Source: Desulfobacteraceae bacterium | GTDB lineage: Bacteria; Desulfobacterota; Desulfobacteria; Desulfobacterales; Desulfosarcinaceae | Assembly: GCA_050124755.1 (NCBI GenBank) | Contig: JASFER010000001.1 | Span: forward strand, 2,391-66,390 | Direction of reading: 5' to 3' | Length of the DNA: 64,000 nucleotides | Shown here: positions 8,707-45,158 of the stretch, one piece after another | Layout: each line of letters opens with the position of its first letter | How positions within the stretch are numbered: the stretch's first letter is position 1 | The notes under the pieces: model-generated | The model's database searches: none | What the model was told of the DNA's origin: nothing | What the model saw: only the letters and a program-made list of their open reading frames with translations | Made by a program: the position numbers and the translations under genes

Positions 8707-9336
8707 ATGGCTCAGGCTGCAGAGGCGTTGACGGTTCCCACCCCCACTTTTGGCAACGATACACGCGCTCTATTGCTCATGGCATCTGCGTTGGGACTGA
8801 AAGATAAGTATACCCATGCCCATGCCCACCGTGTGGCGGCCTATTCTAAAAGATTGGCCATTCGCGCAGGTCTTCCCATGCAGGAAGTGATGCAGGTGAC
8901 CATGGGTGGAATGCTGCACGACGTAGGCAAACTGGCGTTGAGTGATCGGATTTTCAGCAACCAAAAGGCGGCGCTGTCTCAAGAGATGCTTTGGGAGGTG
9001 CGCCATCATCCCATCATTGGTGCTGCGCTGCTGAAAAAAGTCGCCTGCGGCAAGACCATATCCGATGCCGTGCTCTTTCATCATGAGCGCATGGATGGCC
9101 GGGGCTACCCTTTTGGCCTTAAAGGGAATGCCATTCCACTGAGCGCCAAAATCGTCAGTATTGCCGATTGCTTCGACGCCATGACCACAGACCGCCCTTA
9201 TCAAAAGCGAAAAGAATGCAACGTGGCTATTTCAATGTTGGACGAGGCCTCGGGAACGAGTTTCTGCCAAGATCTAGTTGCTTTGTTTATCGACGAGATT
9301 CGATATAAGGGTATGGTTCATCATTTTATACCCTGA
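8707..9336 (+). CDS. Stand-alone HD-GYP domain phosphodiesterase (c-di-GMP specific family)
   Basis: Motifs HDVGKLAL and HHERMDGRGYPFGLKG are present. The ATG at 8707 follows GAGGA, although the ORF is open from 8674. The 3' end overlaps convergent panC by 11 nt. Confidence 0.8.
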   Translation: MAQAAEALTVPTPTFGNDTRALLLMASALGLKDKYTHAHAHRVAAYSKRLAIRAGLPMQEVMQVTMGGMLHDVGKLALSDRIFSNQKAALSQEMLWEVRHHPIIGAALLKKVACGKTISDAVLFHHERMDGRGYPFGLKGNAIPLSAKIVSIADCFDAMTTDRPYQKRKECNVAISMLDEASGTSFCQDLVALFIDEIRYKGMVHHFIP

Positions 9337-26251: not shown

Positions 26252-27355
26252 CTAAACCTGTTTAAGCTCAGATTCTGTTTTAATGCAATTTTTACCGCTG
26301 TTTTTTGCTAAATACATAGCTCTATCGGCACGGGTTAACAGGACTTCAATCTTGTCAGCCTGCCGAAATTGAGCCACACCCCCAGATACGGTCACGGCCA
26401 AAGAAGGTGCTACATCCTTGAAATCAATCGCCTCAACCACCTTTCGGACTCTTTCAGCTGCGATTTTTGCGCCTTCAAGATTGGTCCCCATGGCCAGGAG
26501 AATGAACTCCTCCCCGCCAAATCGGGCAAAAAGATCCGAAGCTCTCAACTGTGACTGGATCGTCGATGAAAACCGTTTAAGAACGATATCACCGATGTGA
26601 TGTCCCCTTTTGTCGTTTATATCTTTAAAATCATCCAGATCAAAAAAACAGATGCAAAAGCCCATATTGATGCGGTTTGCTATCGCTTTTTGTCGATTAA
26701 GCATCATGATCATATGCCGTCTGTTGAGCAATCCGGTAAGCTCATCGGTGGTAGCCATCCGCTCCATTTTTTCCATGGCTTGGGCCAGTTCCGCATTTCG
26801 TTGGTGGAGCCGGCGCTGCACGAGACTGACTTCATTGCTTACCAGGGAAAAAGCGACAATGATGAGCACGAACGCCATGGCAACAACAATTTCGTTTTCA
26901 AGGGAAATTGAATTCGGATACTGCAGATGCACTAAATATATGACGAAGAGGTAGCCTGTAACGGTGAGCATAGCAGTAGCGATATATTGACGCGCGGTCA
27001 TTCTGAAAGCACCGTAAATCAGGATAATCGGAAAGAACATCATCATCAGAGGACGAAAATGATCCATAAAGAAAAGTGTTATGAGCAGCGCAAAATTAGA
27101 CCAGATCACCTGCTCCCGGGTCATGCTGGGATCAGCGAATCGCAGGTTGAAGCCTGTGCGAATAGCCAAATATATAGTTATATGACCGGTCCACAAAGCG
27201 ACCATTAAAATAGTGAAGCCTGGAATTTCCAACCTAAATCCATCTGCAAGGAACACAATGAGTGCAACGATGGACTGGATTACACCCCCGCCCATCGCCT
27301 GAAGAACGCGCTTGACGCGCAGTTGTTGATGAGGGTCTATTTTGTGAATGAACAT
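26252..27355 (-). CDS. Membrane-anchored diguanylate cyclase (GGDEF)
   Basis: A polytopic N-terminal domain of about 170 aa is followed by DELTGLLNRR, DLDDFKDINDKRGH and the active site GGEEF. Confidence 0.85.
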   Translation of the reverse strand: MFIHKIDPHQQLRVKRVLQAMGGGVIQSIVALIVFLADGFRLEIPGFTILMVALWTGHITIYLAIRTGFNLRFADPSMTREQVIWSNFALLITLFFMDHFRPLMMMFFPIILIYGAFRMTARQYIATAMLTVTGYLFVIYLVHLQYPNSISLENEIVVAMAFVLIIVAFSLVSNEVSLVQRRLHQRNAELAQAMEKMERMATTDELTGLLNRRHMIMMLNRQKAIANRINMGFCICFFDLDDFKDINDKRGHHIGDIVLKRFSSTIQSQLRASDLFARFGGEEFILLAMGTNLEGAKIAAERVRKVVEAIDFKDVAPSLAVTVSGGVAQFRQADKIEVLLTRADRAMYLAKNSGKNCIKTESELKQV

Positions 27356-30204: not shown

Positions 30205-30409
30205 TTGCATAAAAAAACCTGGTCTTCAGGGCCAGGTCTGATGCCATTGGTTTTGCCTTCTAATCAGGGTTCGGGGCGTATAACCTTATTGAAAGATGAA
30301 CATCGAACGCCCAACGTCGAACATCCAATGATGAGATCGCTTCGCTCCGCCATCTTATCAATCGACAGAATACCATGTTGGACGTTGGACGTTGGACGTT
30401 CGATGTTCA
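30205..30409 (+). repeat. Palindromic intergenic element, copy B (the most complete copy)
   Basis: The flank with its terminator hairpin spans 30205..30240. The left arm (30297..30328) and right arm (30378..30409) are complementary at 29/32 positions. The right arm is TTGGACG x3 followed by TTCGATGTTCA. The core is 49 nt (30329..30377). Confidence 0.85.
30211..30240 (-). terminator. Rho-independent terminator (minus strand) forming the distal end of element copy B
   Basis: The minus strand reads CAGACCTGGCCCTGAAGACCAGGTTTTTTT, an 8-bp stem followed by U7. It lies downstream of the ATPase gene that ends at 30524. Confidence 0.7.
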
Positions 30410-30523
30410 AGGTTTACCCAAGATATCACCCATCCCCTTACAGGGGTTCAATCAAAGCCGGGTCCTTGGGACCCGGCTTTTTACTCTTGGTTTGATGAGA
30501 TTGAGATGGCTGGCCGGAGGGGC

Positions 30524-32926
30524 TTAGTCTTGGGGCACGGTGCGGCAGTGGGGGCAGAATCGCCAATCGTCGACCATGAATTTGCCGCACTTTTTGCACA
30601 GTCTGGTCACCGAAGCACCGCAATACGGGCAATAGGGATAGCGTTCTTCGAGAATGCTGTCGCAGTGCTCACAGGGAATTTCTATGGTGTTCTGGGGGCC
30701 GAATACCCGCAGCACTTCCTCACACGTGGTCATGCCGGCTTCAACCTTTCGAATGGCATCGTCCAGCAAGGTGGTCATGCCTGATTGCCGGGCTGAGCGC
30801 ATCAGCTCGGTTTCCGATGCATTGCTCCTGATCATGCGGCGCATCTCACTGTCCACAAGGAAGATTTCAAAGATGCCCAGGCGTCCTTTGTAGCCGCTGT
30901 CATGGCATTTTCGACATCCCGCGCCTTTTTGAGCTTTGATTTCGCGGTTATAAATTTTCAAGGCGTGGCGAACATGGGGCGGGGGCTCATCGTCGGTTTT
31001 GCAATGGGGACAAATGCGGCGAACCAATCGTTGGGCGATAATGCCGATCATGGCATCGGCGATCACATAGGATTTAATGCCCATGTCCAGCAGCCTGGTA
31101 ATGGAAGCAATGGCGCTGTTGGTGTGCAACGTGCTTAGCACCAGGTGGCCGGTCAAGGCTGCGTGAAAGGCCACCTCAGCGGTTTCAAAGTCGCGGATTT
31201 CACCCAGCATGATCACATTGGGATCCTGCCTCAAAATGGAACGCAACACCATGGAAAAGCTGAGACCGATCTTGTCTTTGACACTAACCTGCTCAGCCAT
31301 GTTCATGTAATATTCCACCGGATCTTCGATGGTGGTAAAATTTTTGGTAATCTTGGCGCCTTTGCGCAACAGCGAATACAGCGTGCTGGTTTTGCCGCTG
31401 CCTGTCGGGCCGGTGGTGAGTACGATGCCCTGGGGCATGTCGATGATGCGCATGGCTTTTTTAAGGTCTGCTTCTACGAGTCCGATATCGGCGACATCCC
31501 GAATGGCGGCGTTCTTATCCAGAATGCGAAAGACCACTTTTTCGCCGTTGATGGTGGGAAGGGTGGAGATGCGCATATCCACCATGCGCGAGGAGGTTTT
31601 GACGGTGATGCGCCCGTCCTGGGGCCGCCGTCGTTCGGCAATATCCAGGTCGCTCATGATTTTGATGCGCGATACCATGGGCATGTGTATATGCACGGGG
31701 ATATGCAGTTTGTCTTCCAGTAAGTCATCAATGCGATAGCGCACCATGGTATACTTGGTTTTGGGCTCGATATGGACATCAGAGGCCCCGTGCCGCAACG
31801 CATCGGAGATGATGGCGTTGACGATACGAATTGCAGGCGGTTGTTCCGTTGCTTTGAGGAGATCACCCAGGTCGGTGTGCTCATCATCTTCTTCAATGAT
31901 GATTTCAATGGTCTCGGTGGGGTCATCGATATCGATTTCTCCAACGACCTGTTCGAGTTGATCCTCTTCGCCGTAGATATCGGTCAATTTTTGGATGATC
32001 TCCTTTTGTGTCGCCACAACCGGTTGAACGGTCAGGCCGGTGATAAATTTGAGATCATCCAGCTTATTAAAGTCCGTGGGATCGGCCATGGCAACAATCA
32101 GCGTGCTGCCGGTCTTTTTGAGCGGCACCAAAATGTTCTTCTCGCAGACTTCTTTGGGGATCAATGCCGCCAGTGCTTCGGATACATTGAATTCATTTGG
32201 AGAAACGCGATGGATGCGACATGCGTTCTCGATCACTTTCAGTATGGTGGCTTCGTCCACCGCATCCATGTCCGCTAAAATTTTGGGCAACACTTTGTGG
32301 GTGCTTTTTTGAATACGCAACGCTTTATCCAACGCCTGTTGTTGAATATGGCCCTGGCGTACCAGGTGATTGCCCAGATGACTGTGGTGCGCATTGAGGA
32401 ACCGGCTCAGGCGCTTGAGCTCATTCTTCTGAGCGGATGTTTTCTGTTTCAGGGCTTTGTTCTCCTGAATCAGGTCGTACTGTTCCAAAGCCAGGCTCAC
32501 AGTTAATCGCAGGTCTTCGTCGTTCCAGGGTTTGGTAATAAATTTATAGACAGCGCCGTCGTTCACCGCCCCCATCACCGCATTCACATCCGCATAGCCG
32601 GTGAGCATGATACGAATGGTGGCCGGGTAGCGCTTTTTGACTTCCCGAAGCAAATCCGTACCGTTCATACCGGGCATGCGATGGTCGGAGATGACCACCT
32701 GAACCGGGTTTTCAGCCATAACGGACAGCGCTTGTGGTGCTGATTCGGCGGTCAGCAATCCATAGTTTTCCTGGCGGAAAATGCGCAGCATGGCCCTGAG
32801 AACGTGGGGTTCATCATCGACAAACAGAATCTGATATTTTTTGGGGGCAGCACCGGTCTGATCTTCATCCGAAACCGCCGGGGCGTCATGATCTTTATTT
32901 AAAAATAATGCGGCTAATCGCGACAT
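30524..32926 (-). CDS. REC-fused GspE/PilB-family secretion ATPase: REC + MshEN-like/T2SSE_N domain + AAA ATPase + C-terminal double zinc ribbon
   Basis: The REC domain has FVDDE, VVISDHRMPGMNG and KPWNDEDL. An MshEN-like motif is HLGNHLVRQGHIQQQALDKALRIQ. The Walker A is GPTGSGKTST, and the GspE tetracysteine is CPHC...CRKC. An extra tail reads CEHC..CPYC..CKKC..CPHC. Confidence 0.85.
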   Translation of the reverse strand: MSRLAALFLNKDHDAPAVSDEDQTGAAPKKYQILFVDDEPHVLRAMLRIFRQENYGLLTAESAPQALSVMAENPVQVVISDHRMPGMNGTDLLREVKKRYPATIRIMLTGYADVNAVMGAVNDGAVYKFITKPWNDEDLRLTVSLALEQYDLIQENKALKQKTSAQKNELKRLSRFLNAHHSHLGNHLVRQGHIQQQALDKALRIQKSTHKVLPKILADMDAVDEATILKVIENACRIHRVSPNEFNVSEALAALIPKEVCEKNILVPLKKTGSTLIVAMADPTDFNKLDDLKFITGLTVQPVVATQKEIIQKLTDIYGEEDQLEQVVGEIDIDDPTETIEIIIEEDDEHTDLGDLLKATEQPPAIRIVNAIISDALRHGASDVHIEPKTKYTMVRYRIDDLLEDKLHIPVHIHMPMVSRIKIMSDLDIAERRRPQDGRITVKTSSRMVDMRISTLPTINGEKVVFRILDKNAAIRDVADIGLVEADLKKAMRIIDMPQGIVLTTGPTGSGKTSTLYSLLRKGAKITKNFTTIEDPVEYYMNMAEQVSVKDKIGLSFSMVLRSILRQDPNVIMLGEIRDFETAEVAFHAALTGHLVLSTLHTNSAIASITRLLDMGIKSYVIADAMIGIIAQRLVRRICPHCKTDDEPPPHVRHALKIYNREIKAQKGAGCRKCHDSGYKGRLGIFEIFLVDSEMRRMIRSNASETELMRSARQSGMTTLLDDAIRKVEAGMTTCEEVLRVFGPQNTIEIPCEHCDSILEERYPYCPYCGASVTRLCKKCGKFMVDDWRFCPHCRTVPQD

Positions 32927-32928
32927 AT

Positions 32929-34335
32929 TTACCCCTTTGCCGCCGGCAGGTGAACCGTAAAGCGGCTGCCTTTGCCGGATTCGCTCTGCACCTTGATTTG
33001 TCCTGCATGCTTTGCAATCAGCTGATAGACCAAGTGGAGTCCCAGACCCGTCCCTTGCCCCACGGCTTTGGTTGTGAAAAAAGGATCAAATATTTTGGCC
33101 ATGTTTTCCGCGGCAATTCCGGTGCCTGTATCTATAATGCCGACAGCCACGCGGTCATTGGCGGTTCGGGTAGTGATCTCCAAGGTCCCCTCAGCGTCCA
33201 TGGCCTCGAGTGCGTTGACAATGAGGTTGAACCACACCTGGCTGATCTCTTGCGGGTATCCGATGATCATGGGGACCGGATGAAAGACCCTGTTGACCGA
33301 AATTCCGGGGGCCACGCGATTTTGAACGATGGTCAAGACAGCATCAATGCTTTCATGGACATTGATGGGTTCTTGCTGGTATTCGCCGGGACGTGCCGCC
33401 GTTTTTAAATCCTGAACGATTTTTTGGATGCGCTTGGCGCCGGTGAGGGACTCGGATATCAGGACGGGCAGGTCGGCCAGCAAGAACGCTCCATCCAGTT
33501 CGTTTTCTTTGGCTTCAATGGTTTTGCATTGGGATCGAATGGCCGATAAACATCCATTGTGGGCGTCATCGCCGCAAAGCGCCGTCAGATGCCGGTATTG
33601 TTGCATCAGGGCGTCAAGGTCATCCCCGTAATCCTTCAACGTGTTCAGGTTGCTGAGAATAAAGCCCAATGGATTGTTGATTTCATGAGCCATACCGGCC
33701 GACAATTGACCGATGGCGGCCATCTTCTCCTGTTGCATCATATGGGCGTGGGCGATTCGAATCTCTTCGGTTTTGTTTTGAACTTCAATTTCAAGATTAG
33801 CGGACAGGTTGCGGTATTTCTCTTCAGATCGGGCAAGCTGTTCCGCCTTGTTTTTAATTTCCGCATAAGATTCTTCCACCACTAAGCCGTGCAGGCCGGA
33901 TGTCAGCATGGTCTGATGTTTCAGGCGTATCAGCTGTTTGAGTAAATTTGCGCCGGCGCGGCTCTTTTCAATGATTCGCTCTTGAGCGTTGTCTGGAACG
34001 CGGACAGCCATGTACCCCATTACTTCCAACTCATATTCTATGGGAAGGAGCAGGAAGCGCACACCGTTACCCATTTTGATGGTCGTTTGGCCTTCCGGCC
34101 GGTCTTGCATAATTTTGGTTTCGAGTTTATCGGTCTGGCCGTGGCGCCAGGGTCCGAATTGATCGTGTATCGTGCCGTTTGCGGTATATAGCGCCCATTG
34201 CTCCGGCAGCAGCGGCGACAATTCATGGGTGATGCGCTCCAGCAAATCCTTGGGCAGCAGTTCACTGATTTGATACTCGCGATCAAAAGGCTCGACCTCG
34301 ATATGTTCACTTACAAAAGACGTCATCTTTATCAC
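32929..34335 (-). CDS. Cytoplasmic sensor histidine kinase with an uncharacterised N-terminal domain of about 170 aa, a coiled coil, HisKA and HATPase
   Basis: H-box GMAHEINNPLGFI, N-box NLIVNALEAM and G-boxes DTGTGI and GTGLGL are present. No TM segment is evident. A 2-nt gap separates it from the downstream ATPase gene. Confidence 0.85.
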   Translation of the reverse strand: MIKMTSFVSEHIEVEPFDREYQISELLPKDLLERITHELSPLLPEQWALYTANGTIHDQFGPWRHGQTDKLETKIMQDRPEGQTTIKMGNGVRFLLLPIEYELEVMGYMAVRVPDNAQERIIEKSRAGANLLKQLIRLKHQTMLTSGLHGLVVEESYAEIKNKAEQLARSEEKYRNLSANLEIEVQNKTEEIRIAHAHMMQQEKMAAIGQLSAGMAHEINNPLGFILSNLNTLKDYGDDLDALMQQYRHLTALCGDDAHNGCLSAIRSQCKTIEAKENELDGAFLLADLPVLISESLTGAKRIQKIVQDLKTAARPGEYQQEPINVHESIDAVLTIVQNRVAPGISVNRVFHPVPMIIGYPQEISQVWFNLIVNALEAMDAEGTLEITTRTANDRVAVGIIDTGTGIAAENMAKIFDPFFTTKAVGQGTGLGLHLVYQLIAKHAGQIKVQSESGKGSRFTVHLPAAKG

Positions 34336-34343
34336 TCTGACGG

Positions 34344-34994
34344 TTATGGCTGCGGCGCAATGACGGACAGGAACTTTTCTTCCGTCAGTCCGTGCCGATC
34401 AGCCAGATCATAGCTTTGATCAAGTATTTTAAACATGCTTTTCAATGCCTGTACGAATGTCTGTCGCACACCACGGCCGTAAAGGGCGCTGCCGAACACC
34501 AGCGGGAGCCCCGTCGGTTTCCAGCGGCTGAGCACTTCGTCTTCGCTGACGATATGATTCAGATCCCGCTTATTGAATTGGATCACCAGCGGCAGGTTCA
34601 AGAAATCAAGTCCCACCCGTCCGGCATTTTTTTCCAGGTTGTCAAAGCTCTCAAAGTTGCTGATGGCTTGATTGATCTGAGAATCGGCAACAAAAATGAC
34701 GCCGTCCGCTCTGGACAGCACCGCTTTGCGCGTGGCGTCATGGGCCACCTGTCCAGGCACGGTGTATAATTTGATTTTAACCTTCAGCCCGTTGTTGCCT
34801 TTTATCAGCAGCGGCAGAAAATCGAAAAACAGCGTCCGGTCCCCCTTGGTTTCGAAAGCCATGAAGTCCCCGCAATGTTCGGCCTTCAGCATGTCGTGCA
34901 GTCGCATCAGGTTTGTGGTTTTGCCGCTAAGCGCAGGGCCGTAATACACGATCTTTGCCGTCAGACGATTTGCTTTGGAATCAAATTCGGCCAT
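34344..34994 (-). CDS. MglA-type Ras-like small GTPase
   Basis: G1 is GPALSGKTT, the MglA-specific G3 is LYTVPGQV, G4 is FNKRD, and RTLFFDFLPL is present. The start was chosen at M28 of the track ORF (after GGAAAG). An 8-nt gap separates it from the kinase gene. Confidence 0.8.
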   Translation of the reverse strand: MAEFDSKANRLTAKIVYYGPALSGKTTNLMRLHDMLKAEHCGDFMAFETKGDRTLFFDFLPLLIKGNNGLKVKIKLYTVPGQVAHDATRKAVLSRADGVIFVADSQINQAISNFESFDNLEKNAGRVGLDFLNLPLVIQFNKRDLNHIVSEDEVLSRWKPTGLPLVFGSALYGRGVRQTFVQALKSMFKILDQSYDLADRHGLTEEKFLSVIAPQP

Positions 34995-35280: not shown

Positions 35281-35784
35281 ATGCATCTTCACTCAATACT
35301 CATCGTGGATGACGAGCGTATGATTCTTAAGGCGATACAACGCACTTTACGTCATGAAAAGTATAATCTCATAACTGCCGACAGCCCGCAAGAGGGGCTC
35401 AGGTTGCTGGAAGGTCGTGATTTTGACATGGTGATCAGCGATCACAACATGCCGCAGATGACCGGCTTGGAGTTTTTGAAAAGAGTCAAGGCCGATCACC
35501 CCGGCACCCTGACGATCATGCTCACGGGACAGAAGGAGATTGAAGTCGCCGTACAGGCCATCAACCTGGCCGGGGTTTACAAATTCATTATGAAGCCTTG
35601 GGATGACGATGATCTTAAAATTACGATCCGGCGGGCTTTAGAGTCGTTGGATTTGGTGCGTGAACGCGACACCTTGACCGAACGCATTAAAGAGCGCGAC
35701 GCCATCTTGCGCAATTTGGAAAAAGCGCATCCGGGAATCACGCAAGTGGACAAGGATGAAGAAGGCTATCTGATCTTGGAGTAA
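35281..35784 (+). CDS. Stand-alone response regulator (REC plus a coiled-coil tail of about 45 aa)
   Basis: Motifs IVDDE, MVISDHNMPQMTG and YKFIMKPWDDDDL are present. Confidence 0.85.
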   Translation: MHLHSILIVDDERMILKAIQRTLRHEKYNLITADSPQEGLRLLEGRDFDMVISDHNMPQMTGLEFLKRVKADHPGTLTIMLTGQKEIEVAVQAINLAGVYKFIMKPWDDDDLKITIRRALESLDLVRERDTLTERIKERDAILRNLEKAHPGITQVDKDEEGYLILE

Positions 35785-35798
35785 AAGATGAGAATACA

Positions 35799-36614
35799 CT
35801 AGGGCATCAGCGTTATGATAACGCCTTTCCCGTTGAATTTTCCCGACAAAGGTACGATCGTTGCGTTGTAATCTGATGCCTGTCGGGTTTTACCTTCATG
35901 CAGGACTTGTTGTCCTGTGTCCATGGCTTTTGATACGGCTCCCATCACATCCGACTCAAAATATTGGCTGAGCGGTACACCGATTTTCATGCTTGTGCCG
36001 TTCACGATGCTTTTGGCCATCTCGTTGGCCAGCACAATAACACCGTCATTGTCAACGCCCAGTACGGCAATCGGCATTTTCTCAAGAATCGCATCCGATA
36101 ACTCCAAGGCGTGGTTTTTGATTGCGATTTCCCTTGTTCGCGCTGCAACCGCATCTTCGAGTTTGTCATTGATCTGTCGCAGCTCCCGGTTCTGCCGAAT
36201 GACGGTTTCATCCAGATGCCGGTTGGCTTTGATCAAATCGTACTGGTCCAACGCCTGTCGAATTTCTAGTTTAAGATTATGGTCATTCCAAGGTTTGAGA
36301 AAAAACTTGTAAATATGGCCTTTATTGATCGATTCGGTGATCGTATCCACTTCCGTGTAACCGGTTAAAATAACGCGCAGCATATCCGGATACTTCTCTT
36401 TCACTGCAGCCATAAGTTCGGTGCCGCTCATCTCAGGCATGCGTTGATCCGAAATAATCAGATGAACTTCATTTTCCTCAAGCAGCTTAAAGGCCTCCTC
36501 CGTGCTGGAGGTCAATAACAAATGATAGTTCTCTTTGCGCAGCAGGCGTCTCAGCGCCTGCAAAATACTGGGTTCATCATCTACGCAGAGGATGGTGTGT
36601 CGAATCTCGCCCAT
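35799..36614 (-). CDS. Response regulator, REC + coiled coil + PAS-like domain
   Basis: Motifs CVDDE, LIISDQRMPEMSG and YKFFLKPWNDHNL are present. The C-terminal region MPIAVLGVDNDGVIVLANEMA is PAS-like. Confidence 0.8.
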   Translation of the reverse strand: MGEIRHTILCVDDEPSILQALRRLLRKENYHLLLTSSTEEAFKLLEENEVHLIISDQRMPEMSGTELMAAVKEKYPDMLRVILTGYTEVDTITESINKGHIYKFFLKPWNDHNLKLEIRQALDQYDLIKANRHLDETVIRQNRELRQINDKLEDAVAARTREIAIKNHALELSDAILEKMPIAVLGVDNDGVIVLANEMAKSIVNGTSMKIGVPLSQYFESDVMGAVSKAMDTGQQVLHEGKTRQASDYNATIVPLSGKFNGKGVIITLMP

Positions 36615-36620
36615 TGTTGA

Positions 36621-37532
36621 TTATTCCTCCATCAGTATTTGACACGCCTGTTTGATATCATCCTTTAATTCGGGGATCCATTGATCGGCTGAAGTGATTT
36701 GGTGCTTCAGCAGCCGACGCGCGCCGACGCTGATCGGTGGCCATTCCTTGGCTGGTGAACCGTTTTCCAAATAGACATGCGACAGCGCATCCGCCGCGTG
36801 TACGATGTACACCAGGTTGTCCGCGGAACCATTTGAGGTGCATGTGTGATGGCCGCCGATAACGCTGGGCATGGGATCGGGCAGATGCCATCGTCTGGCC
36901 AGTTGGGCGCCGAGATCCGTATGATTCAATGGAAAGTGGCGATGTTCGGCTTCCCAGAAAGTGAGTTGCTGGCCAAGCATTGTTTCCCACACCGCCTGAA
37001 ACCGGTCGCTAAAATAGTGGGCCATGACGATTTTGCCGATATCATGAATGATTCCGGCGGTGAATACTTCTTCACGATAGTGGTGGCCGGTCTGCTGATC
37101 CAGATATTTGCTGATCACGGCAACACCGATGGCATGGCGCCAAAACTCCCATATATCGAATCCTTTTATTGTCTTATTCATTTTCAGAGCATTGATCACA
37201 TCAATGGATAGGACAGCGTTGCGCACCGTATTGAAGCCGAGCAGCATCAAGGCGTGTTGCACACTGGAAACCCTGGAATTTAAGCCGAAAAAGGCTGAAT
37301 TGACCAGCTTCAACATCTTGGTCACAATCGATTGATCATATTGGATGATTTCAGCCACATCCTGGGCAGGCATGTTGATGTCCTGCAGGGTGCGGCTGAG
37401 TTTCATGGCCACTGTGGAAAGGGTGGGCAACTCGTGAACCGCATCGAGTTGCCGCAGGAATTTTTCTGCGCTTAACGCCTTTTCGCTTGCAGCGGCATCG
37501 TGGATATTGCTGATCCCGGTTTGAGGTGTCAT
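36621..37532 (-). CDS. HDOD domain protein
   Basis: Motifs LPTLSTVAMKL and IIHDIGKIV and the overall HDOD layout are present. Its ATG overlaps the stop of the upstream REC-HD-GYP gene by 4 nt. Confidence 0.8.
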   Translation of the reverse strand: MTPQTGISNIHDAAASEKALSAEKFLRQLDAVHELPTLSTVAMKLSRTLQDINMPAQDVAEIIQYDQSIVTKMLKLVNSAFFGLNSRVSSVQHALMLLGFNTVRNAVLSIDVINALKMNKTIKGFDIWEFWRHAIGVAVISKYLDQQTGHHYREEVFTAGIIHDIGKIVMAHYFSDRFQAVWETMLGQQLTFWEAEHRHFPLNHTDLGAQLARRWHLPDPMPSVIGGHHTCTSNGSADNLVYIVHAADALSHVYLENGSPAKEWPPISVGARRLLKHQITSADQWIPELKDDIKQACQILMEE

Positions 37533-38935
37533 TTGGTTTTCTCCGTCGTTTCGTTCCCTGCGGGTATGGAAACCACCAGTTTATCGGGAAGCATGCCTCT
37601 TTCGCCGATGCTTTGAATGGTTTGGGCCGTTGTTTCTTTCAGCCTTGTGCCTTTGGTGAGCAACAAGCGTCCGTCATTGAGACGCAGATCTTCCATCAAG
37701 ACCATCCCGGCTTTAATTGCTTTCAGGCTGATGGCATGGGAAGGATCGATATTCCTGGATTTACGAATCACCTTTATCAAGGCGGTCACCACGTCCATAT
37801 CGTATTTGCGGTTGCTTTCGATAAGCAGTTTTTTCTCCGCCGCCTCTTCGATGGTCACCTCCGGATCATCGGTGACGGTAAAACTTTTCCAAACGGAAGC
37901 ATCAAAATGCCGGCGGGTATAACGGACGAGTTTGCGCGCATCCCGCGGCCAGGTTGACGTGATACCCAGATAATCCGAAACGGCTAAAATAATTCTGGAA
38001 CCCAGCGGTATCTGGGATTTTTTGAGGCCGTTCGGAAATCCTTGGCCATTGACATATTCATGGTGGAAAAGAACGATTTCTCCCACGTCGGCCAGCTTAT
38101 CCACGCTGTCAAGGATAACCGATCCAATAACCGGATGTTCTCTGAACAAGCGGTACTGCGCGTCACTCATTTGTTTGACGTCTTTGCCCTGCAACTCGTC
38201 AGGCAACCCGAGCAATCCGATATCATGGATCATGCCGGCCATTTCGATCTTATCCAGTTCGGCTGCGCTCAGAGGGAACTCCTCCGCCACCTTGCGCGAC
38301 AGTTGGGCAACCTGCCGCATCTGTTTACCCAGAGCCGGTTTTACGCTTTCTACAAGGGCCGTCAGCAACCGAATGGAATCCATGAAGCTGGCTTCCAGCA
38401 TGCGGTTGATTCTTTCCAAGGCCTTGTTTTGTGCAATGACTTGGGTGGTGCGCTCTTTGACTTTGCATTCCAGATTTTTATTGAGGTCACTCAGTTTTGC
38501 ATTTTGCGCCGCGGTCAGCGCCGTCAGACGCTTGTTCTCAGATACCAGTTCATAATGCTCCAAAGATTGCGCCACCTGAAGCAACAGATCGTTATCGTTC
38601 CAGGGCTTGGTCAAATAGCGGTGAATTTCACCTTTGTTGACCGCCTGTATGACGGCCTCCAAATCAGAGTATCCCGTCAGCAAATAACGGATGGCCTCCG
38701 GGCAGATGGCTTTGGATTTTTCCAGGAACTGGGCCCCGTTCATTTCGGGCATGCGCTGATCCGAAATGATCATTGAAACCGGTTTTTCAAGCTGGTGGAG
38801 TTTTTCAAGGCCTTTCAGGCCGCTTTCGGCTGTCAGAATGTGATACCCTTCTTTGCGAAACAAGCGGTGCAGGGCTCTGGTGATGGCTTTTTCGTCATCG
38901 ACCAGCAATAAAGTATGTTCTTTTTGTAATGCCAA
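37529..38935 (-). CDS. Response regulator, REC + HD-GYP-type domain (GFP variant) + C-terminal extension of about 110 aa
   Basis: Motifs LVDDE, MIISDQRMPEMNG, TKPWNDNDL and MIHDIGLLGLP are present. HHEYVNGQGFPNGLKK shows GFP in place of GYP. Confidence 0.8.
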   Translation of the reverse strand: MALQKEHTLLLVDDEKAITRALHRLFRKEGYHILTAESGLKGLEKLHQLEKPVSMIISDQRMPEMNGAQFLEKSKAICPEAIRYLLTGYSDLEAVIQAVNKGEIHRYLTKPWNDNDLLLQVAQSLEHYELVSENKRLTALTAAQNAKLSDLNKNLECKVKERTTQVIAQNKALERINRMLEASFMDSIRLLTALVESVKPALGKQMRQVAQLSRKVAEEFPLSAAELDKIEMAGMIHDIGLLGLPDELQGKDVKQMSDAQYRLFREHPVIGSVILDSVDKLADVGEIVLFHHEYVNGQGFPNGLKKSQIPLGSRIILAVSDYLGITSTWPRDARKLVRYTRRHFDASVWKSFTVTDDPEVTIEEAAEKKLLIESNRKYDMDVVTALIKVIRKSRNIDPSHAISLKAIKAGMVLMEDLRLNDGRLLLTKGTRLKETTAQTIQSIGERGMLPDKLVVSIPAGNETTEKTK

Positions 38936-39019: not shown

Positions 39020-40747
39020 TCAGCAATCTTCCAGCCTGTCGAAAGCGTCTGTCGGTATTTTTATGGTAAAGGTGGTCCCCTTGCCCACCGTGCTGTCCGC
39101 TTCTATGTTACCGTTATGTTTTTTCACGATATTATAGGCAATATTCATCCCCAAACCGGTCCCTTTGCCCACGTCTTTGGTGGTAAAAAAGGGATCGAAG
39201 ATTTTACGCAGATTCTCTTTTGGTATGCCGCAACCGGTGTCGCTGATCTTGATTTCCACATGGCCGTTCAACTGTTGTGTTTTGACGACAATCTCTCCCT
39301 TTTTTTCGATAGCCTGGGCGGCATTAACCAAAATGTTCATAAATACTTGATTGAGTTGTTGTGGATAACCTTTCACCGGCGGAATGTCGCCAAGATCCTT
39401 CTTCACTTTGGCTTTATATTTGATTTCGTTGTTGACCACATTTAATGTGGACTCCAGCCCTTTATTGATATCAATAGATTTAATTTTGTCTTCGCCGGGA
39501 TGGGCGAAATCTTTCAGATCCATGACGATTTTTTTGATACGGTCGGTGCCTTCCCGACAATCGCCGATCAGATCGTTGATATCGTCCAGCAAAAATTCCA
39601 GATCGATATCATTTTCAACGGCAGATATCTTTTGAGCACTTTGCATTAAAGGTTCAGGAATCCGGTCGTTAAATTCAACACTGCCCAGATCGGTTATCAA
39701 TTGACGATATTTTTCAATCAAATGGGCGATGTCGCTTTGATAATCCACGAGCGTTTTTAAATTGCTGCTGATAAAACCTGTGGGATTATTGATTTCGTGG
39801 GCTACACCGGCCGCAAGTTGACCGATGGAAGCCATTTTTTCGGAATGAAGCATCTGGGCCTGTGTATTTTCCAGTTGTTTCAGGGTGTTTTTCAGTTCGG
39901 TGTTCTGGTTTTCGATCTTGGCCGTGTTGGCCATCAATTGTTCATTCAACAAATGGATTTGTTCGGTCTTGCGCCGGTCCTCGCTGACATCCTGGGCAAG
40001 CACGACCACCTTAAATAGATCATCCAACTCATTTCGTACGGGCTGGCAGCTGACTTTTAGAAATGTCTCTTCGCCATTGCCACTTTTGACGACAACCAGC
40101 TCGTTTGCCTCGGAGCCGTTTTCAAAAACATGGCTCACCAAAGACTGAAGACCTTCATCCCGAAGGAAATTGTTTTCCGAGATGGCGTGATCTAAACAAT
40201 GTTTGCCCACGACCTCTTGCGGACGGCATTTCAGTCGATTGGTAAACGCTTTATTGACAGTGACAATCTTCATATCCCGGTCCAGGGAGACGATCTCCTC
40301 GCCAAGAGAATCAATGACAATCCGCAACTTGTTGCGGCTTTCGATAATCGTTTTGGCCATGCTATGATAGCGCTCCTCAAGATCGATCACACGTATGCCG
40401 TTCATCACACGGGCCTTGAATTCTTCAAGGTCGAATGGTTTTGGGATGTAGTCATCGGCGCCGGCCCTGAATACATCCACAATGTCTTCCTTGCGGTTTT
40501 TGGCCGTCAGCATGATGAAATAGATATATCTTTTAAAGGCTTCTGAACGAATCTTTTTGCACAGCTCCAATCCATTCAGTCCCGGCATCACCCAATCGCA
40601 GATGACAATCTTGGTCTTTTTGGCATTGAGGATTTCCCAGGCCTGTTGCCCGTCTTCAGCTTCGATTATCGTATGGCCCATTGCCTCCAGTGCATTTTTC
40701 AGCATGAGGCGGAAAATATTTTCATCTTCGACAATTAAAATTTCCAT
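39020..40747 (-). CDS. Hybrid histidine kinase, REC + PAS + HisKA + HATPase
   Basis: Motifs ILIVEDE, IVICDWVMPGLNG, H-box GVAHEINNPTGFI and G-boxes DTGCGI and GTGLGM are present. The ORF is open to 40759; the start MEILIVEDE was preferred. Confidence 0.85.
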   Translation of the reverse strand: MEILIVEDENIFRLMLKNALEAMGHTIIEAEDGQQAWEILNAKKTKIVICDWVMPGLNGLELCKKIRSEAFKRYIYFIMLTAKNRKEDIVDVFRAGADDYIPKPFDLEEFKARVMNGIRVIDLEERYHSMAKTIIESRNKLRIVIDSLGEEIVSLDRDMKIVTVNKAFTNRLKCRPQEVVGKHCLDHAISENNFLRDEGLQSLVSHVFENGSEANELVVVKSGNGEETFLKVSCQPVRNELDDLFKVVVLAQDVSEDRRKTEQIHLLNEQLMANTAKIENQNTELKNTLKQLENTQAQMLHSEKMASIGQLAAGVAHEINNPTGFISSNLKTLVDYQSDIAHLIEKYRQLITDLGSVEFNDRIPEPLMQSAQKISAVENDIDLEFLLDDINDLIGDCREGTDRIKKIVMDLKDFAHPGEDKIKSIDINKGLESTLNVVNNEIKYKAKVKKDLGDIPPVKGYPQQLNQVFMNILVNAAQAIEKKGEIVVKTQQLNGHVEIKISDTGCGIPKENLRKIFDPFFTTKDVGKGTGLGMNIAYNIVKKHNGNIEADSTVGKGTTFTIKIPTDAFDRLEDC

Positions 40748-41012
40748 AGACGCTTCCATTAAAAAGCAATCTTATAAATGTGTTGCACCAATAAGTAGAA
40801 TACTATTCAAATTTCAGGGCTTGGGATTCAATTCGGGAGAGGAGATGTTCAGAAAGATTTGCAGATTCAAGTTGACTGATTGTTTTTTCGTATAGCTTTG
40901 TACTCAACTAGTGAACACAAAATTATCACAACTTCTGTTTCCTAACATCGACCTTTTTTGCGTTAACTTTAGCGCATTCTGTTATCTGTTATGAAACCGG
41001 TTATCGATGGGC

Positions 41013-43622
41013 TCAAGCCGCCGAGCGCTTGTCCAACGCTCCGCGAATGGCGGCAGACAGCTTATCCCGGACCAAAGGTTTGTACATCAAAGCCCGGGCG
41101 CCGATATTTGAAGCCATCTGTTCGCTGATATTTGCACTATATCCGGTACATAAGAGAACAGGCAGGTCGGGACGAATTTTCATCATCTCCTTGGCCATAT
41201 CAGGGCCGGCCATCTGAGGCATGGTGACATCGGAAATAACCAGATCAAATTGTTCCGGAGCATTGCGGAACTGTTCCAGCGCCGCGACGGGATTGTTGTT
41301 AGTCGTCACATGGTATCCCATTTTGGAGAGCAATTGAGATATCATGCGCGTTAGAAGCGATTCATCATCAACAAAAAGAATGTGTTCGCCTCCTCCGACA
41401 ATGGCGTTTGGCTGTTGTTGGACCTGTAAATTCTTTATTTTAACGGCCGGCAGGTAAATGTTGAAAGTTGATCCCTGTCCGACAACACTGTCGACACAAA
41501 CGGCCCCGTTTAAACTTCTGACGATACCCTGGACCACCGAAAGCCCCATTCCGGATCCTTCGCCCTGGGCTTTAGTGGTAAAGTAAGGATCAAAGATGCG
41601 CTCCAAGGTTTCCGCCGACATGCCGTGCCCGGAGTCCGCGACCTTGAGCAATGCATAGTGACCTTCTTTCAGACTTGTCTCACAAGGCGCATTGCCGGGA
41701 GTAATATCGATCATTGAAAGAGCGATGGTCAGGACACCGCCGCTATCTCGCATGGCATGGCTGGCATTGGTGCAAAGATTGACGATGATCTGATGCACTT
41801 GCGTCGGATCGGCAAGAACAGTGGGATTGGCATCCAACTCGGTTCGGATCTCGATGTTCGTGGGCAGCGTTGCGCGCATTAGATTGCGGCTCTCTTTTAC
41901 GATGTTGGTCAAGTTCAGTGGATGTTTTTTAATTTCGGTTTGGCGGGCAAAAGTCAATATTTGGCGCACAAGCTCGGCCGCGCGCTGGGCGCCCGCGATA
42001 GCCTGTTGAAGGTTATCTTGCTGGCTGGTATCCGTGATCGCATCTTCCAGGGCCAATTCACAATATCCAATGATGGCATAAAGAATATTGTTAAAATCAT
42101 GTGCAATTCCTCCGGCCAGCGTGCCCAGAGCCTCCATTTTGTGGGCTTGCCGCAGCTGGGTCTCCAATTTATGTTTTTCATCCTCAATCTTTTTGCGATC
42201 GGTGATGTCAATAAGGGCGCCGTCAATATAAGCGGTCCCTGTTTTTTGGTCCACAGTGCGATTCAGATGGACGGCGCCCCATATGGGCGTGCCGTCTTGG
42301 CGTTTAAAACGAAGTTCCAGGCGTTGTATGTTATCCGATGCCTTAAACCAGTCCATCATATAATCGTATTGTTCCGGATGGTCATATAACCGGCAAATGG
42401 GCACATTCATCATCTCATCCTGGGAATCGTAACCGAAAATGGAAACCATTTTGGGATTGGCAAACAGAAAGCGCCCATCAATGGTTCTTCGGAACAGACC
42501 AATGGGAATATTGTCCTGCAGCGAACGCAGTTGGGCCTCGCTCTTCTGCAGCGCATCGGCCATTTGCCGGCGTTCTTCGATCTGTTCTTGCAGATTTTCA
42601 TTGGCATTTTTCAAATCCCTGGTGCGCCGGCGGACTTTGGACAAAACCTTATTGAAAGCCTGGGCGAAGTAGAGAAATTCGGCGTGCCGGACCTCGGCGG
42701 TGTCCAGATCCGAGTGCCCATCGGTGGCAGCGATATGATGGGCATTTTTAGCCAGGGCATCCAGTGCACAAGTGACTCTTTTCAGAATCAAAAAAGAGAT
42801 CGTAAAGGTCAAAATCAAAAGCGGTATGCACAGCAAAACCAGTTTTGTCACCATTGACCACCGATGATGTCGGTATTGTTGGTTGTCAACGATAAAATAC
42901 ACAGACGGAAATTCCTGCATGCCCATAAGCTGGGGATAGCGCCCATCCGAAGCGTGCTGATGTTGATTTCGGGTCAGTTCGGAAGTGATCCAGTGCGATG
43001 TCATGTACAACGGCCGATGGGTGAACACGTCTGTTAAGTGCTCCTCTTGCCTGTAAACAAGGGATAGATCGCTGAACGCCGCCAACAGTTCCAAACAATG
43101 CGGGTCCTTGCTCAGATCATAAACCCCCACGGCATGTCCTTCAACCCGGTCTTGATGGATGATGGGCGTAAAATAGACAAAGGTATGCTGATTAACCGCC
43201 TTCTGGGTTACGCCACCCGGCTGCAGTGCAAGCAGCTGCGTATCATTTAGAAATCCATGATCGTCACCGGGTTGCGGATAATAGCGGCCCTCCGGGCTGC
43301 GCACGTAAAAGGTGCTGCCCATGGACTGGGGGTAGAACGCATTGATGCTTTCGGCAATTTTAGAGTGCATCCCGAGAAACAGCGCAATCCTGATATTGTT
43401 GTTGAACCGGATCTCTTCGACCCTGGAATGGGTGTAATTCAGCCTGTTGGTTAAATGCAGGCGCAATTCCGCTTGTTGCGCATTGATCCGACCGATCTGC
43501 TCCTGTTGCATGGACTGGTCCAGCATTGCGAACAAAAAACCGATCACAACGGCCAAGGAGAGGCCTTCCAGGAGAAAGACCATGACGAGTAAAAAACGTC
43601 TGAAAGTCGGCGGTCTTTTCAT
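41013..43622 (-). CDS. Membrane sensor hybrid histidine kinase: periplasmic domain between 2 TM segments, HAMP-like region, PAS, HisKA, HATPase, REC
   Basis: TM segments lie at the N-terminus and near residue 260. The H-box is GGIAHDFNNIL, the G-boxes are DSGHGM and GSGMGL, and the C-terminal REC has LVISDVTMPQMAG. Confidence 0.85.
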   Translation of the reverse strand: MKRPPTFRRFLLVMVFLLEGLSLAVVIGFLFAMLDQSMQQEQIGRINAQQAELRLHLTNRLNYTHSRVEEIRFNNNIRIALFLGMHSKIAESINAFYPQSMGSTFYVRSPEGRYYPQPGDDHGFLNDTQLLALQPGGVTQKAVNQHTFVYFTPIIHQDRVEGHAVGVYDLSKDPHCLELLAAFSDLSLVYRQEEHLTDVFTHRPLYMTSHWITSELTRNQHQHASDGRYPQLMGMQEFPSVYFIVDNQQYRHHRWSMVTKLVLLCIPLLILTFTISFLILKRVTCALDALAKNAHHIAATDGHSDLDTAEVRHAEFLYFAQAFNKVLSKVRRRTRDLKNANENLQEQIEERRQMADALQKSEAQLRSLQDNIPIGLFRRTIDGRFLFANPKMVSIFGYDSQDEMMNVPICRLYDHPEQYDYMMDWFKASDNIQRLELRFKRQDGTPIWGAVHLNRTVDQKTGTAYIDGALIDITDRKKIEDEKHKLETQLRQAHKMEALGTLAGGIAHDFNNILYAIIGYCELALEDAITDTSQQDNLQQAIAGAQRAAELVRQILTFARQTEIKKHPLNLTNIVKESRNLMRATLPTNIEIRTELDANPTVLADPTQVHQIIVNLCTNASHAMRDSGGVLTIALSMIDITPGNAPCETSLKEGHYALLKVADSGHGMSAETLERIFDPYFTTKAQGEGSGMGLSVVQGIVRSLNGAVCVDSVVGQGSTFNIYLPAVKIKNLQVQQQPNAIVGGGEHILFVDDESLLTRMISQLLSKMGYHVTTNNNPVAALEQFRNAPEQFDLVISDVTMPQMAGPDMAKEMMKIRPDLPVLLCTGYSANISEQMASNIGARALMYKPLVRDKLSAAIRGALDKRSAA

Positions 43623-43624
43623 TT

Positions 43625-44677
43625 TTAACGGTTTGTTGCTCCTGCTTCGGCCAAATCAGTTGATGCCACGTTTTGGTATAAATTGTCCGCCCCGCTGATC
43701 AACTCGAAGGGCGGCTCAAAACCCACCAGTTCCGCCGCCTTAAGGTTGACATCCACGGAGAGCTTGACACCCACATCCATGGGCAGGGCGGCAGGCGGGG
43801 TTCCTTCAAGGATTTTAACGGCATATTGGGCGCACTGGCGGCCGAAGCGTTCGGCATCTTTGCCGATCCCCATCACCAGGCCCTTTTGGATATTGGTGGG
43901 ATCTCCTGCACTGACAATCCGGTGTTCCAAAAACGCCGCCATAAACACGTCAAATTCTTTGGTAAAAGTGTTGGAGGTCTGAACAAAAAAGGCATCTACC
44001 CGGGGGCAGACCGCCGCCAGGGCCGATTGCATATTGCTGCGGATTTGATCCCGCGGAAAGCGAACCCGGTTCTCATCCCTGAGGGGGAATCCCTCGTGGA
44101 TGAATTTAAAACCAATTTCTTTGGATAATTTGCGAATCTGGCGGATTCCGGCTTCATGACTGGGCGAACCTTTCAGATAGATCATGCCCAGGCTTTTGAA
44201 CGAGACAAAATGATGCATCAGGCGAACGACTTTGGTGTAATATTCGGGGGTTTCCACGCCTGTATAATTGGCTCCGGAACTCTTCCAGTCTTTGACGATA
44301 CCGGCATTTTGAGGATCGCCGACAATGGTATACACGATGGGCGTTTTTTTCTCGGCTTTGACCATTCGTTTGGTGGAATGGGTGCCGATGGTAAAAATCA
44401 GATCGATATCCGATCTTGCGGCCAGTTCGTTGATCTTGGATTCCAAGGCGCCGATATCGCTGCGGGCATTAAAATCATCCACAATGTCAAAATCGGCCTT
44501 ATTACCTAATATGCTCAAATTACTGATAAAAGCGTCATGGGCCTGCTGAAAGGGCAAAAATTGCTGATGTTGAACAACAGCAATCGTGTAACGGGGGCCC
44601 GCTTGCACCGCTCCTGCAATTAAAACCAGGATCAGCGTTAGAAGGATGTAAAATGGACGGTGTCTTCCTTTTTCCAT
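43625..44677 (-). CDS. Periplasmic ABC-type substrate-binding protein ('ABC_sub_bind' family) without cognate permease or ATPase genes
   Basis: It has a signal-peptide-like N-terminus. The pattern IAVVQHQQ...IFTIGTHSTK...GANYTGV is typical of this family. A 2-nt gap separates it from the downstream sensor kinase gene. Confidence 0.6.
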   Translation of the reverse strand: MEKGRHRPFYILLTLILVLIAGAVQAGPRYTIAVVQHQQFLPFQQAHDAFISNLSILGNKADFDIVDDFNARSDIGALESKINELAARSDIDLIFTIGTHSTKRMVKAEKKTPIVYTIVGDPQNAGIVKDWKSSGANYTGVETPEYYTKVVRLMHHFVSFKSLGMIYLKGSPSHEAGIRQIRKLSKEIGFKFIHEGFPLRDENRVRFPRDQIRSNMQSALAAVCPRVDAFFVQTSNTFTKEFDVFMAAFLEHRIVSAGDPTNIQKGLVMGIGKDAERFGRQCAQYAVKILEGTPPAALPMDVGVKLSVDVNLKAAELVGFEPPFELISGADNLYQNVASTDLAEAGATNR

Positions 44678-45158
44678 AGCATGTCTCCAATTTCATGAAT
44701 ACTAAAGTAAATCTGACACATATGGGATGAGACCCAAGTCTCTCCACAATATGGCGTCGATAATGAATCCGTGTGAAGTGTGGCCGGTGGAGTGTGATAT
44801 GCGTCAACTGCCAATCGAAAGGAGATGCGATTCAACTGTTTTTATTTTACAACCAAGCCATCGGCCATCAATGGTTTTTTCTTAAGTTTTTTTACTAACC
44901 CACGAAAAGTCCGGCAGCAGGCGTTCGGTCAAATGATTAAGTTTGTAACATTATAAAAATTTTTAAAGTAACATGATTTATGATCGATAGTTCTATCAAG
45001 TTGGTTTAAGTGATCTATTCGGCTTGAAGCTCTATGTGTTTTGCCACTCAAATGCCCTATCCGCAGTTATTTTGAAATTGAGCACAGATCAACTTTCTAC
45101 TGGTTAAGCCGATTCAGCCGCCATAAAACGGCTAATAATAACGCCATAGGAGAAGTCT

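Follow-up and report, generated by a model that had tools for sequence, protein, structure and literature searches.

In a 64-kb stretch of Desulfobacteraceae DNA (the window), we analysed three minus-strand genes at positions 30524-34994, which encode, in this order, an MglA-family GTPase, a soluble histidine kinase and a PilB-type ATPase that carries its own receiver domain (REC). The same trio is found in several phyla, with intact catalytic and acceptor residues, operon-like spacing and no linked structural genes of a pilus or secretion system. We give an even chance to the reading that these genes form a conserved, self-contained signalling operon, in which the GTPase and the kinase would act as the input and phosphotransfer would gate an orphan PilB-type motor together with a branch of cyclic di-GMP (c-di-GMP) signalling. 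The genes, the protein parts on which this reading leans and the downstream hairpins are listed here (aa, amino acids).

34344..34994, minus strand: MglA-family GTPase gene, 216 aa
32929..34335, minus strand: soluble histidine kinase gene, 468 aa (Pfam, motifs, orthologue alignments)
33880..34302, minus strand: kinase N-terminal domain, residues 12-152, an orphan alpha/beta domain
30524..32926, minus strand: ATPase gene, 800 aa, REC + MshEN-T2SSE + double zinc ribbon (Pfam, PDB, family alignment)
32501..32830, minus strand: ATPase receiver domain, residues 33-142, acceptor Asp81 in VVISDHRMP
30545..30673, minus strand: double zinc ribbon of the ATPase, residues 752-794, four CxxC at 752-791 (PF12773, 1e-7)
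30454..30480, no strand assigned: perfect hairpin with a 12-bp stem, 44 nt 3' of the ATPase stop
~30210-30240: second hairpin with a T7 run, downstream of the ATPase gene

The initial annotation had described three packed genes separated by gaps of 8 nt (GTPase-kinase) and 2 nt (kinase-ATPase), and these coordinates proved exact. A GGAAAG resembling a ribosome-binding site precedes the ATG of the GTPase gene at 34994, and transmembrane-like segments are absent from all three proteins. The hairpin at 30454..30480 is the probable end of the operon, on weak evidence; when the locus was scanned for promoter and terminator consensus sequences, no enrichment over shuffled sequences was seen. The trio closes off a signalling island on its downstream side, with dnaK and a GGDEF gene farther downstream. 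A 396-nt spacer separates the ATPase gene from dnaK and contains a perfect 7-mer repeat (GTTGGAC, 3.4 copies) and a 14-mer repeated 2.1 times, at 30299-30328 and 30377-30400, and the 14-mer repeat doubles as a 13-bp hairpin. An Rfam scan of the locus, including these spacer repeats, gave zero matches.

Conservation of the gene trio

For the ATPase survey, one genome per GTDB species was searched by alignment, and we kept the loci with a full-length receiver-fused ATPase of at least 45% identity and at least 2.3 kb of upstream sequence (40 loci). A trio was counted when a GTPase gene was located on the same strand no more than 2.5 kb upstream, with a kinase core between GTPase and ATPase. GTPase, kinase and ATPase were found in this order at 38 of the 40 informative loci, and the distance from the end of the GTPase gene to the start of the ATPase gene ranged from 1172 to 1637 nt across the trio loci. 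Metagenomic loci found via a motif of the kinase N-terminal domain had the GTPase gene directly upstream in 19 of 19 cases, and the ATPase gene was present in all 12 that offered enough downstream sequence. The trio was also complete in the three loci that were found via GTPase homologues (72%, 67% and 68% identity). These three keep the series REC-HD-GYP, HDOD, REC(-PAS), GTPase, kinase and REC-MshEN-T2SSE-DZR, and their outer flanks differ. The kinase and ATPase genes are separated by -13 to +28 nt in 22 of 25 loci, and the GTPase and kinase genes overlap by 4 nt in 10 of 31. Since the gene order recurs at 38 of 40 loci, the adjacency of the three genes is not a matter of chance, and the suggestion that the trio would be kept as a neighbourhood in related genomes is borne out.

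Among the Desulfobacterales, the trio is carried by Desulfosarcina, Desulfatitalea alkaliphila M08but, Desulfatibacillum and Desulforapulum autotrophicum; relatives of the kinase also occur in Desulfatibacillum and Desulfosarcina ovata. Further carriers were found in the Geobacterales, the Desulfuromonadales, the Nitrospirota (including Thermodesulfovibrionales) and the Bacteriovoracaceae, in the Gammaproteobacteria (Methylomonas subterranea SURF-2, Marinobacter sp. SS21, Halovibrio salipaludis YL5-2, Oleiphilaceae and Thiohalomonas) and in the Betaproteobacteria (Rhodoferax, Burkholderiales). One trio with zinc ribbon (locus L017, 8033-12415) is located on a 189-kb contig of a metagenome-assembled genome (MAG) labelled Pedobacter sp. 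(Bacteroidota). Its ATPase is 49% identical to that of the window, as in Geobacter-type loci, and the occurrence may reflect mis-binning or horizontal transfer.

In the two exceptions of the ATPase survey, L018 and L023, the ATPase is kept and the GTPase and kinase are both gone. In L023 (106-5985, a Geobacterales MAG), a HisKA-HATPase-REC-Hpt protein and a REC-GGDEF protein are encoded directly upstream of a typical REC-MshEN-T2SSE-DZR gene. We read this swap of the input as a sign that exchangeable kinase inputs can drive a constant receiver-motor output, and that the GTPase and its kinase come and go as a unit.

Domain make-up of the three proteins

The closest PDB sequences to the GTPase in a phmmer search were MglA of Myxococcus xanthus (2.5e-43; 45% identity over 178 residues) and MglA of Thermus thermophilus (3.3e-39), while the Ras and Arf matches in Pfam were weak. 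The motifs that the initial annotation had used to call an MglA-type GTPase were located at residues 19 (GPALSGKT), 80 (PGQ) and 141 (NKRD), and a DRT is found at residue 52. Among about 40 orthologues, which also measure about 216 aa, the P-loop, the DRT (arginine finger plus Thr), TVPGQ and NKRD are kept in at least 95%, and every catalytic element of MglA is retained in the family. A C-terminal tail of 30-37 aa is a family-specific addition. By G-domain similarity, TVPGQ and the intrinsic arginine finger, the protein is assigned from its sequence to the MglA family (Group 1). An identical GTPase sequence is on deposit from a Desulfobacteraceae MAG. No Robl_LC7 (MglB) domain was found by Pfam on window open reading frames (ORFs) of at least 110 aa, and no conserved small gene that could be a candidate MglB surrounds the trio in 44 related loci.

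The ATPase is built as had been proposed, with a receiver, an N-domain, a motor core and a double zinc ribbon: Pfam places Response_reg at residues 33-142 (5e-23), MshEN at 239-323, T2SSE at 360-740 (PF00437, 9e-128, 426 bits) and DZR at 752-794 (1e-7). Residues 179-741 align with full-length PilB of Geobacter metallireducens (5tsg/6olj, 2e-137). Pattern searches located the Walker A motif at 506, the Asp box at 532 and the His box at 593; the Walker B motif VIMLGEIRD, for which the pattern search itself gave no match, is a conserved stretch of the family alignment. The tetracysteine site of PilB is present as CxxC at 639 and 671, with C639, C642, C671 and C674 invariant. The MshEN/N1 domains and the zinc tetracysteine are typical of extension and not of retraction ATPases. 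The strict conservation of the catalytic motifs, the tetracysteine and the PilB N-domains argues for a working motor. It scores below the equivalog cut-offs of both PilB (TIGR02538, 575.1 < 675.65) and GspE (TIGR02533, 546.1 < 630.25). Within the Desulfobacterales the ATPases are 62-85% identical.

The receiver residues D37, D38, D81, T109 and K132 are invariant in 43 of 43 family members. The receiver and its linker resemble REC-HD-GYP proteins (NCBIfam, 202 bits; PDB 2rjn and 3hv2). The zinc ribbon is present in the ATPases of Desulfobacterota, Nitrospirota and Bacteriovoracaceae and absent from all those of Gamma- and Betaproteobacteria; because only some lineages have it, we regard it as accessory. 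Bd2402 was considered as a further member of the ATPase family and rejected, as it carries REC and MshEN_N only.

MshEN domains bind c-di-GMP through two tandem 24-residue motifs, RLGxx(L/V/I)(L/V/I)xxG(L/V/I)(L/V/I)xxxxLxxxLxxQ (PMC5013675). In the ATPase family the MshEN_N helices are present, and the leading Arg of both motifs is replaced (by H/Q/M/V and by V/I/F). The Gly of motif II is P or L in Desulfobacterales and G in Geobacterales, and LG has become LA in Gamma- and Betaproteobacteria. Comparable changes abolish c-di-GMP binding in XpsE, although imperfect motifs sometimes still bind (PMC5013675). Because these motif residues are replaced, canonical c-di-GMP binding by the ATPase is doubtful, and to judge from the sequences its control appears to have moved from c-di-GMP to the fused receiver.

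In the kinase, Pfam recognises HisKA and HATPase_c at residues 209-466 and gives no assignment to residues 1 to about 200, which upholds the earlier description of a soluble kinase with an unassigned N-terminal domain. The catalytic boxes are intact (H217 in HEINNP, N at 370, G1 at 402, G2 at 426), and the protein runs from an N-terminal sensor-like domain through a helical linker of about 75 residues to HisKA and HATPase_c. The HExxN motif would permit phosphatase activity. The best NCBIfam match of the kinase is NF038348 ('T2SS_HK'). We rejected assignment to this family, since the score is 228 bits against a cut-off of 450 and the match covers model positions 275-573, the generic core only.

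A word-indexed homologue search with the N-terminal domain alone gave six matches and was replaced by locus-derived orthologues together with a search with the full-length kinase. When 1.84 billion representative proteins were searched with a profile, the domain had 51 relatives, almost all of them kinases of 450-490 aa with the same architecture; the short matches look like fragments. On these sequences it is classed as an orphan domain essentially restricted to this kinase family. It evolves fast, with 23-55% identity between orthologues versus 60-85% for the ATPase. What is kept is FD(R)EY / ELL at the start, a hairpin with P-x-x-x-E-x-E-x-x-G, and T-x-x-L-H, which is invariant, in the exit helix. 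One kinase of 413 aa (P0181, on an NCBI contig of 271 kb) has a long-form N-terminal domain and apparently lacks about 55 residues of helical linker: its exit helix runs almost straight into the H-box (…HHKTILTMHQEKMAALGQLAAGMAHE…), making it a natural linker-deletion variant.

Two forms of the domain were modelled. The long form, predicted with AlphaFold2 from an alignment of 84 sequences (predicted local distance difference test, pLDDT, 89; predicted template-modelling score 0.84), has the order a-b-b-a-b-b-b followed by a long exit helix. Foldseek against the PDB returned GAF and Roadblock proteins alike at E ~1e-3. The best superpositions were on MglB (3t1r_C, template-modelling (TM) score 0.58/0.60, root-mean-square deviation 3.1 A; also 3t1s, 3t12_B and 6izw_B, among them chains of MglA-MglB complexes) and on LAMTOR/MP1-p14, with TM scores of 0.55-0.66 and deviations of 3.1-3.8 A across the MglB and LAMTOR structures. 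At the sequence level, a profile of the domain found nothing significant among PDB sequences and did not recover MglB, and Pfam gave no Robl_LC7 match. The short form, the N-terminus of a 399-aa kinase (pLDDT 90.6), consists of a helix, a four-stranded meander and an exit helix, without the middle helix. It had no significant neighbour in the PDB (best E 0.17) and no Roadblock protein in its top 50; the weak matches were the GAF domains of CodY, KdpD, DosS and PelD, as well as HbpS and the KinD sensor.

In MglB, both monomers use helix 2 to bind MglA (PMC6876712). The a2-b3 segment, which holds helix 2 and strand 3, measures 31 residues in the window's kinase and 3-10 residues in 21 of 21 kinases outside the Desulfobacterales-type group. 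As the short forms are without helix 2, an interface of the canonical MglB type cannot be a trait that the system has conserved. We conclude from the models that the family-wide core of the domain is a predicted minimal GAF-like sensor module. The initial annotation had asked whether this domain is Roadblock/LC7-like, and this holds in part: the long form of the Desulfobacterales superposes on MglB and LAMTOR, but the family-wide core, which lacks helix 2, does not fit it.

Neighbouring genes and pilus machinery

Pfam scans covered essentially all window ORFs of at least 110 aa in the 64 kb. T2SSF/PilC, secretin, pilin, PilM/N/O, prepilin peptidase and Robl_LC7 domains were not found on any of them, a six-frame scan of the window revealed no prepilin signal motifs, and the sole sizeable intergenic gap of the island held no plausible gene. 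When all ORFs of the 44 related loci were clustered, no structural pilus or secretion genes recurred; the recurrent families were the ATPase, the GTPase, kinases, REC proteins and HDOD proteins (14 loci). The earlier statement that the 64 kb hold no platform, secretin, pilin or MglB/Roadblock gene agrees with these scans. It had been pointed out that platform or pilin genes just outside the locus would speak for an ordinary pilus or secretion operon, and none were found in the window or in the 44 loci.

Upstream of the trio is a group of signalling genes.

35281..35784, plus strand: stand-alone REC protein, 167 aa, divergent from the operon (Pfam)
35799..36614, minus strand: REC-PAS protein, 271 aa, conserved directly upstream of the GTPase gene (Pfam)
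36621..37532, minus strand: HDOD protein, 303 aa (PF08668, 6e-55), recurring in 14 loci
37529..38935, minus strand: REC-HD-GYP-type (HD_5) protein, 468 aa (PF13487, 3e-27), a putative c-di-GMP phosphodiesterase
39020..40759, minus strand: REC-PAS-histidine kinase, 579 aa (Pfam), with counterparts in L001 and L003; a frequent, not universal, upstream member

At 45-48% identity, the ATPase receiver is close to the three adjacent receivers, whereas its identity to the seven other receivers of the window is only 25-32%. Individually, the values are 45% (115 bits) for the stand-alone REC, 47% (134 bits) for REC-PAS and 48% (125 bits) for REC-HD-GYP, and all four clustered receivers share the signature YKF..KPWxDxxL. 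A small REC protein recurs beside the trio in many loci, REC-PAS is present in L001, L003, L004 and many GTDB loci, and REC-HD-GYP is conserved upstream of the trio. Enzymes of c-di-GMP turnover flank distant trios as well: EAL-YkuI_C and REC-PAS-GAF-PAS-GGDEF-EAL in Methylomonas, PAS-GGDEF-EAL-REC in Marinobacter, and REC-HD-GYP with a small REC in Geobacter. The module, with three further paralogous receiver proteins and an HDOD protein, is larger and more closely tied to c-di-GMP than the initial annotation had described.

A second signalling block adjoins the island at 41013-47518. On the minus strand it holds an ABC-type substrate-binding protein and a PAS-HK-REC hybrid kinase, and on the plus strand REC-HD-GYP and REC-HDOD as a divergent pair; its receivers are not of the ATPase-type subfamily. 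A GGDEF protein (26252-27355, just past dnaK and a HATPase_c_2 gene) and a stand-alone HD_5 (HD-GYP-type) protein (8674-9336) are not conserved beside the trio elsewhere. Near the module in other genomes, we found a DUF6901 protein of about 230 aa in four loci (e.g. L004:1775-2461 and L042:12161-12868) and a 140-aa protein without Pfam match in three Gammaproteobacterial loci (e.g. L042:639-1061). At the left end of the window, 1071-2807 encodes a full-length DUF6178 protein (578 aa, 4e-144) that is unrelated to the trio.

Proposed mechanism, alternatives and known systems

We propose that the GTPase and the soluble kinase act as an inseparable input pair. The N-terminal domain of the kinase would most likely read or reset the nucleotide state of the GTPase, and the signal would travel down the helical linker of about 75 residues to the DHp/CA core. 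Through H217, the kinase would then set the phosphorylation of Asp81 on the ATPase receiver, and it would probably phosphorylate the three paralogous receivers (REC-HD-GYP, REC-PAS and the single REC) too. One decision would in this way gate a pilus-type motor plus local c-di-GMP turnover. The ATPase itself is probably an alternative, signal-gated motor for a type IV filament system whose genes are located at another site of the genome. What the proteins bind, which way phosphoryl groups travel and what the ATPase acts on in the cell are thus proposed here; for the transfer from kinase to receiver and for the role of the GTPase, gene context was our guide. In its boldest form, as a new and widespread cascade from a G protein to a two-component system, in which the kinase sensor domain reads an MglA-like GTPase and passes this on to phosphorylation of a motor ATPase with a c-di-GMP phosphodiesterase branch in parallel, the scheme is possible but tentative.

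The pairing of GTPase and kinase is favoured by their joint loss, by their frequent translational overlap and by an N-terminal domain that is exclusive to the neighbourhood of this GTPase, and these observations tilt the balance towards it. Several points weigh on the other side. No PDB structure is significantly similar to the family-wide core of the N-terminal domain; the weak matches are to GAF-type sensors of small molecules, and on the models this core may bind a metabolite instead of the GTPase. Most lineages lack the Roadblock-like helix that would correspond to the contact of MglB with MglA. Moreover, other kinases of the island, such as the REC-PAS-histidine kinase at 39020-40759, could be the true phosphodonor.

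The main rival of GTPase-kinase pairing holds that the GTPase acts on the receiver-fused ATPase itself, in polar positioning or activation, with the kinase N-terminal domain serving as a small-molecule sensor, so that two independent inputs converge on the motor. The weakly GAF- or sensor-like core without a Roadblock match speaks for it, as does the precedent of Myxococcus, where MglA-family GTPases control the localisation and activity of type IV pilus ATPases (PMC4316618), and the co-occurrence of the trio fits a GTPase-ATPase pair equally well. Yet GTPase and kinase were lost jointly from L018 and L023 while the ATPase was retained, GTPase and kinase genes are the pair most often translationally overlapped, and the N-terminal domain occurs only beside this GTPase. 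We judge this alternative to be somewhat improbable.

The ATPase might also power no filament and serve as a signalling ATPase or scaffold, for example as a phosphorylation- or c-di-GMP-dependent effector. This would explain the lack of linked platform and pilin genes in the window and of recurrent structural genes in the 44 loci, and the scores under the PilB and GspE equivalog cut-offs and the additional REC and zinc-ribbon domains agree with it. The strict conservation of the catalytic motifs, the tetracysteine and the complete PilB N-domains makes it unlikely. Extension ATPase paralogues encoded apart from their machine, such as MshE/PilB paralogues, are also common, which again counts against it.

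A third alternative regards the N-terminal domain as a fused Roadblock GTPase-activating protein of the MglB type, with a kinase dimer binding one GTPase via helix 2 and both stimulating and sensing hydrolysis. The long-form model does superpose best on MglB and LAMTOR Roadblock proteins, no separate mglB gene was found in the window and none is conserved close to the trio, and the GTPase keeps the intrinsic Arg and Gln that MglB repositions. These superpositions come with an E value of only ~1e-3, the same as for GAF matches, and neither Pfam Robl_LC7 nor the PDB profile search supports them. With an a2-b3 segment of just 3-10 residues in each of the 21 kinases that fall outside the Desulfobacterales-type group, and a short-form model that has neither the middle helix nor a Roadblock protein in its top 50, a built-in MglB is quite improbable. 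Finally, the window is crowded with two-component genes, but an incidental meeting of three unrelated signalling genes in such a region is effectively refuted by the recurrence of order, strand and tight spacing in 38 of 40 and 19 of 19 loci, in several phyla and with differing flanks.

Among known systems, the MglA/MglB/SofG module of M. xanthus resembles the trio in its GTPase family, in the functional tie of an MglA-type GTPase to a PilB-type ATPase, and in the receiver proteins of the circuit. SofG and MglA control PilB and PilT in this organism, and the receiver-domain proteins of its MglA circuit are RomR and FrzZ/FrzX. In contrast, the trio has no separate MglB, its GTPase is coupled in an operon with a histidine kinase and an ATPase and has an extra C-terminal tail, its ATPase has a receiver of its own and no linked pilus genes, and it is found mostly outside the Myxococcota. 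The conservons of Streptomyces likewise place a GTPase of the MglA superfamily in a conserved operon with a histidine-kinase-type protein. In conservons, CvnA sits in the membrane and has HAMP plus a C-terminal LPxR motif, CvnB (Roadblock) and CvnC are separate genes, and there is no response regulator; CvnD is a Group 2 MglA, a group without a conserved arginine finger in MglA or MglB (PMC4316618). We rejected the trio as a conservon, since it has a soluble kinase without HAMP and with another N-terminal domain, a GTPase that bears the finger, no CvnB or CvnC, and a receiver-fused ATPase as output.

With MshE and other c-di-GMP-activated PilB-type ATPases, the ATPase shares a complete MshEN domain before the T2SSE core and a neighbourhood rich in c-di-GMP enzymes; it differs in the replaced leading Arg of both c-di-GMP motifs. 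In Xanthomonas and Pseudomonas, PdeK-PdeR and FimX-PilZ bring PilB under the control of a two-component system and a c-di-GMP phosphodiesterase (PMC11656802). Control is indirect there, via adaptors, whereas the motor described here carries its own fused receiver and shares its operon with a small GTPase.

The architecture REC-MshEN-T2SSE was catalogued by Wang et al. in 2016, with Gmet_3473 of G. metallireducens as example and a distribution in beta-, gamma- and delta-proteobacteria (PMC5013675, Suppl. Table 4). Domain architecture and reported distribution are the same as for the ATPase described here, a likeness by architecture only; the table entry has no reference and does not describe the GTPase and kinase partners, the zinc ribbon or the operon. 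The claim that this architecture is uncharacterised therefore stands for the trio and has to be narrowed for the ATPase, whose domain order was already on record (PMC5013675). A literature search on the trio, Gmet_3473, Bd2402 and receiver-fused PilB found no characterisation or experimental study. The 2014 census of prokaryotic small GTPases reported variable neighbourhoods for MglA Groups 1, 4 and 5 and no conserved partners for most MglA groups, and did not describe the trio (PMC4316618); in a 2024 review of PilB regulation, the terms 'receiver' and 'MglA' are absent from the main text (PMC11656802). The trio appears to be assembled from known kinds of parts into a system that has not been characterised.

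If the proposed reading is right, the ATPase would be, to our knowledge, the first type IV pilus extension-type ATPase that is itself a response regulator. As far as we know, the links of prokaryotic Ras-like GTPases to other signalling are largely unknown outside Myxococcus and the Streptomyces conservons. The trio offers a fixed wiring diagram of a GTPase, a dedicated kinase and a receiver-fused PilB, and the locus ties together small-GTPase, phosphorelay and c-di-GMP signalling. Because the carriers include cultured organisms (Desulfatitalea alkaliphila, Methylomonas subterranea, Marinobacter sp. SS21 and Halovibrio salipaludis), the links between GTPase and kinase and between kinase and motor can be tested directly, in vitro and genetically. 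If true, the operon would act in Geobacter, sulfate reducers, methanotrophs, Marinobacter and other lineages outside the myxobacteria as a compact switch that sets the time and place of type IV filament extension.

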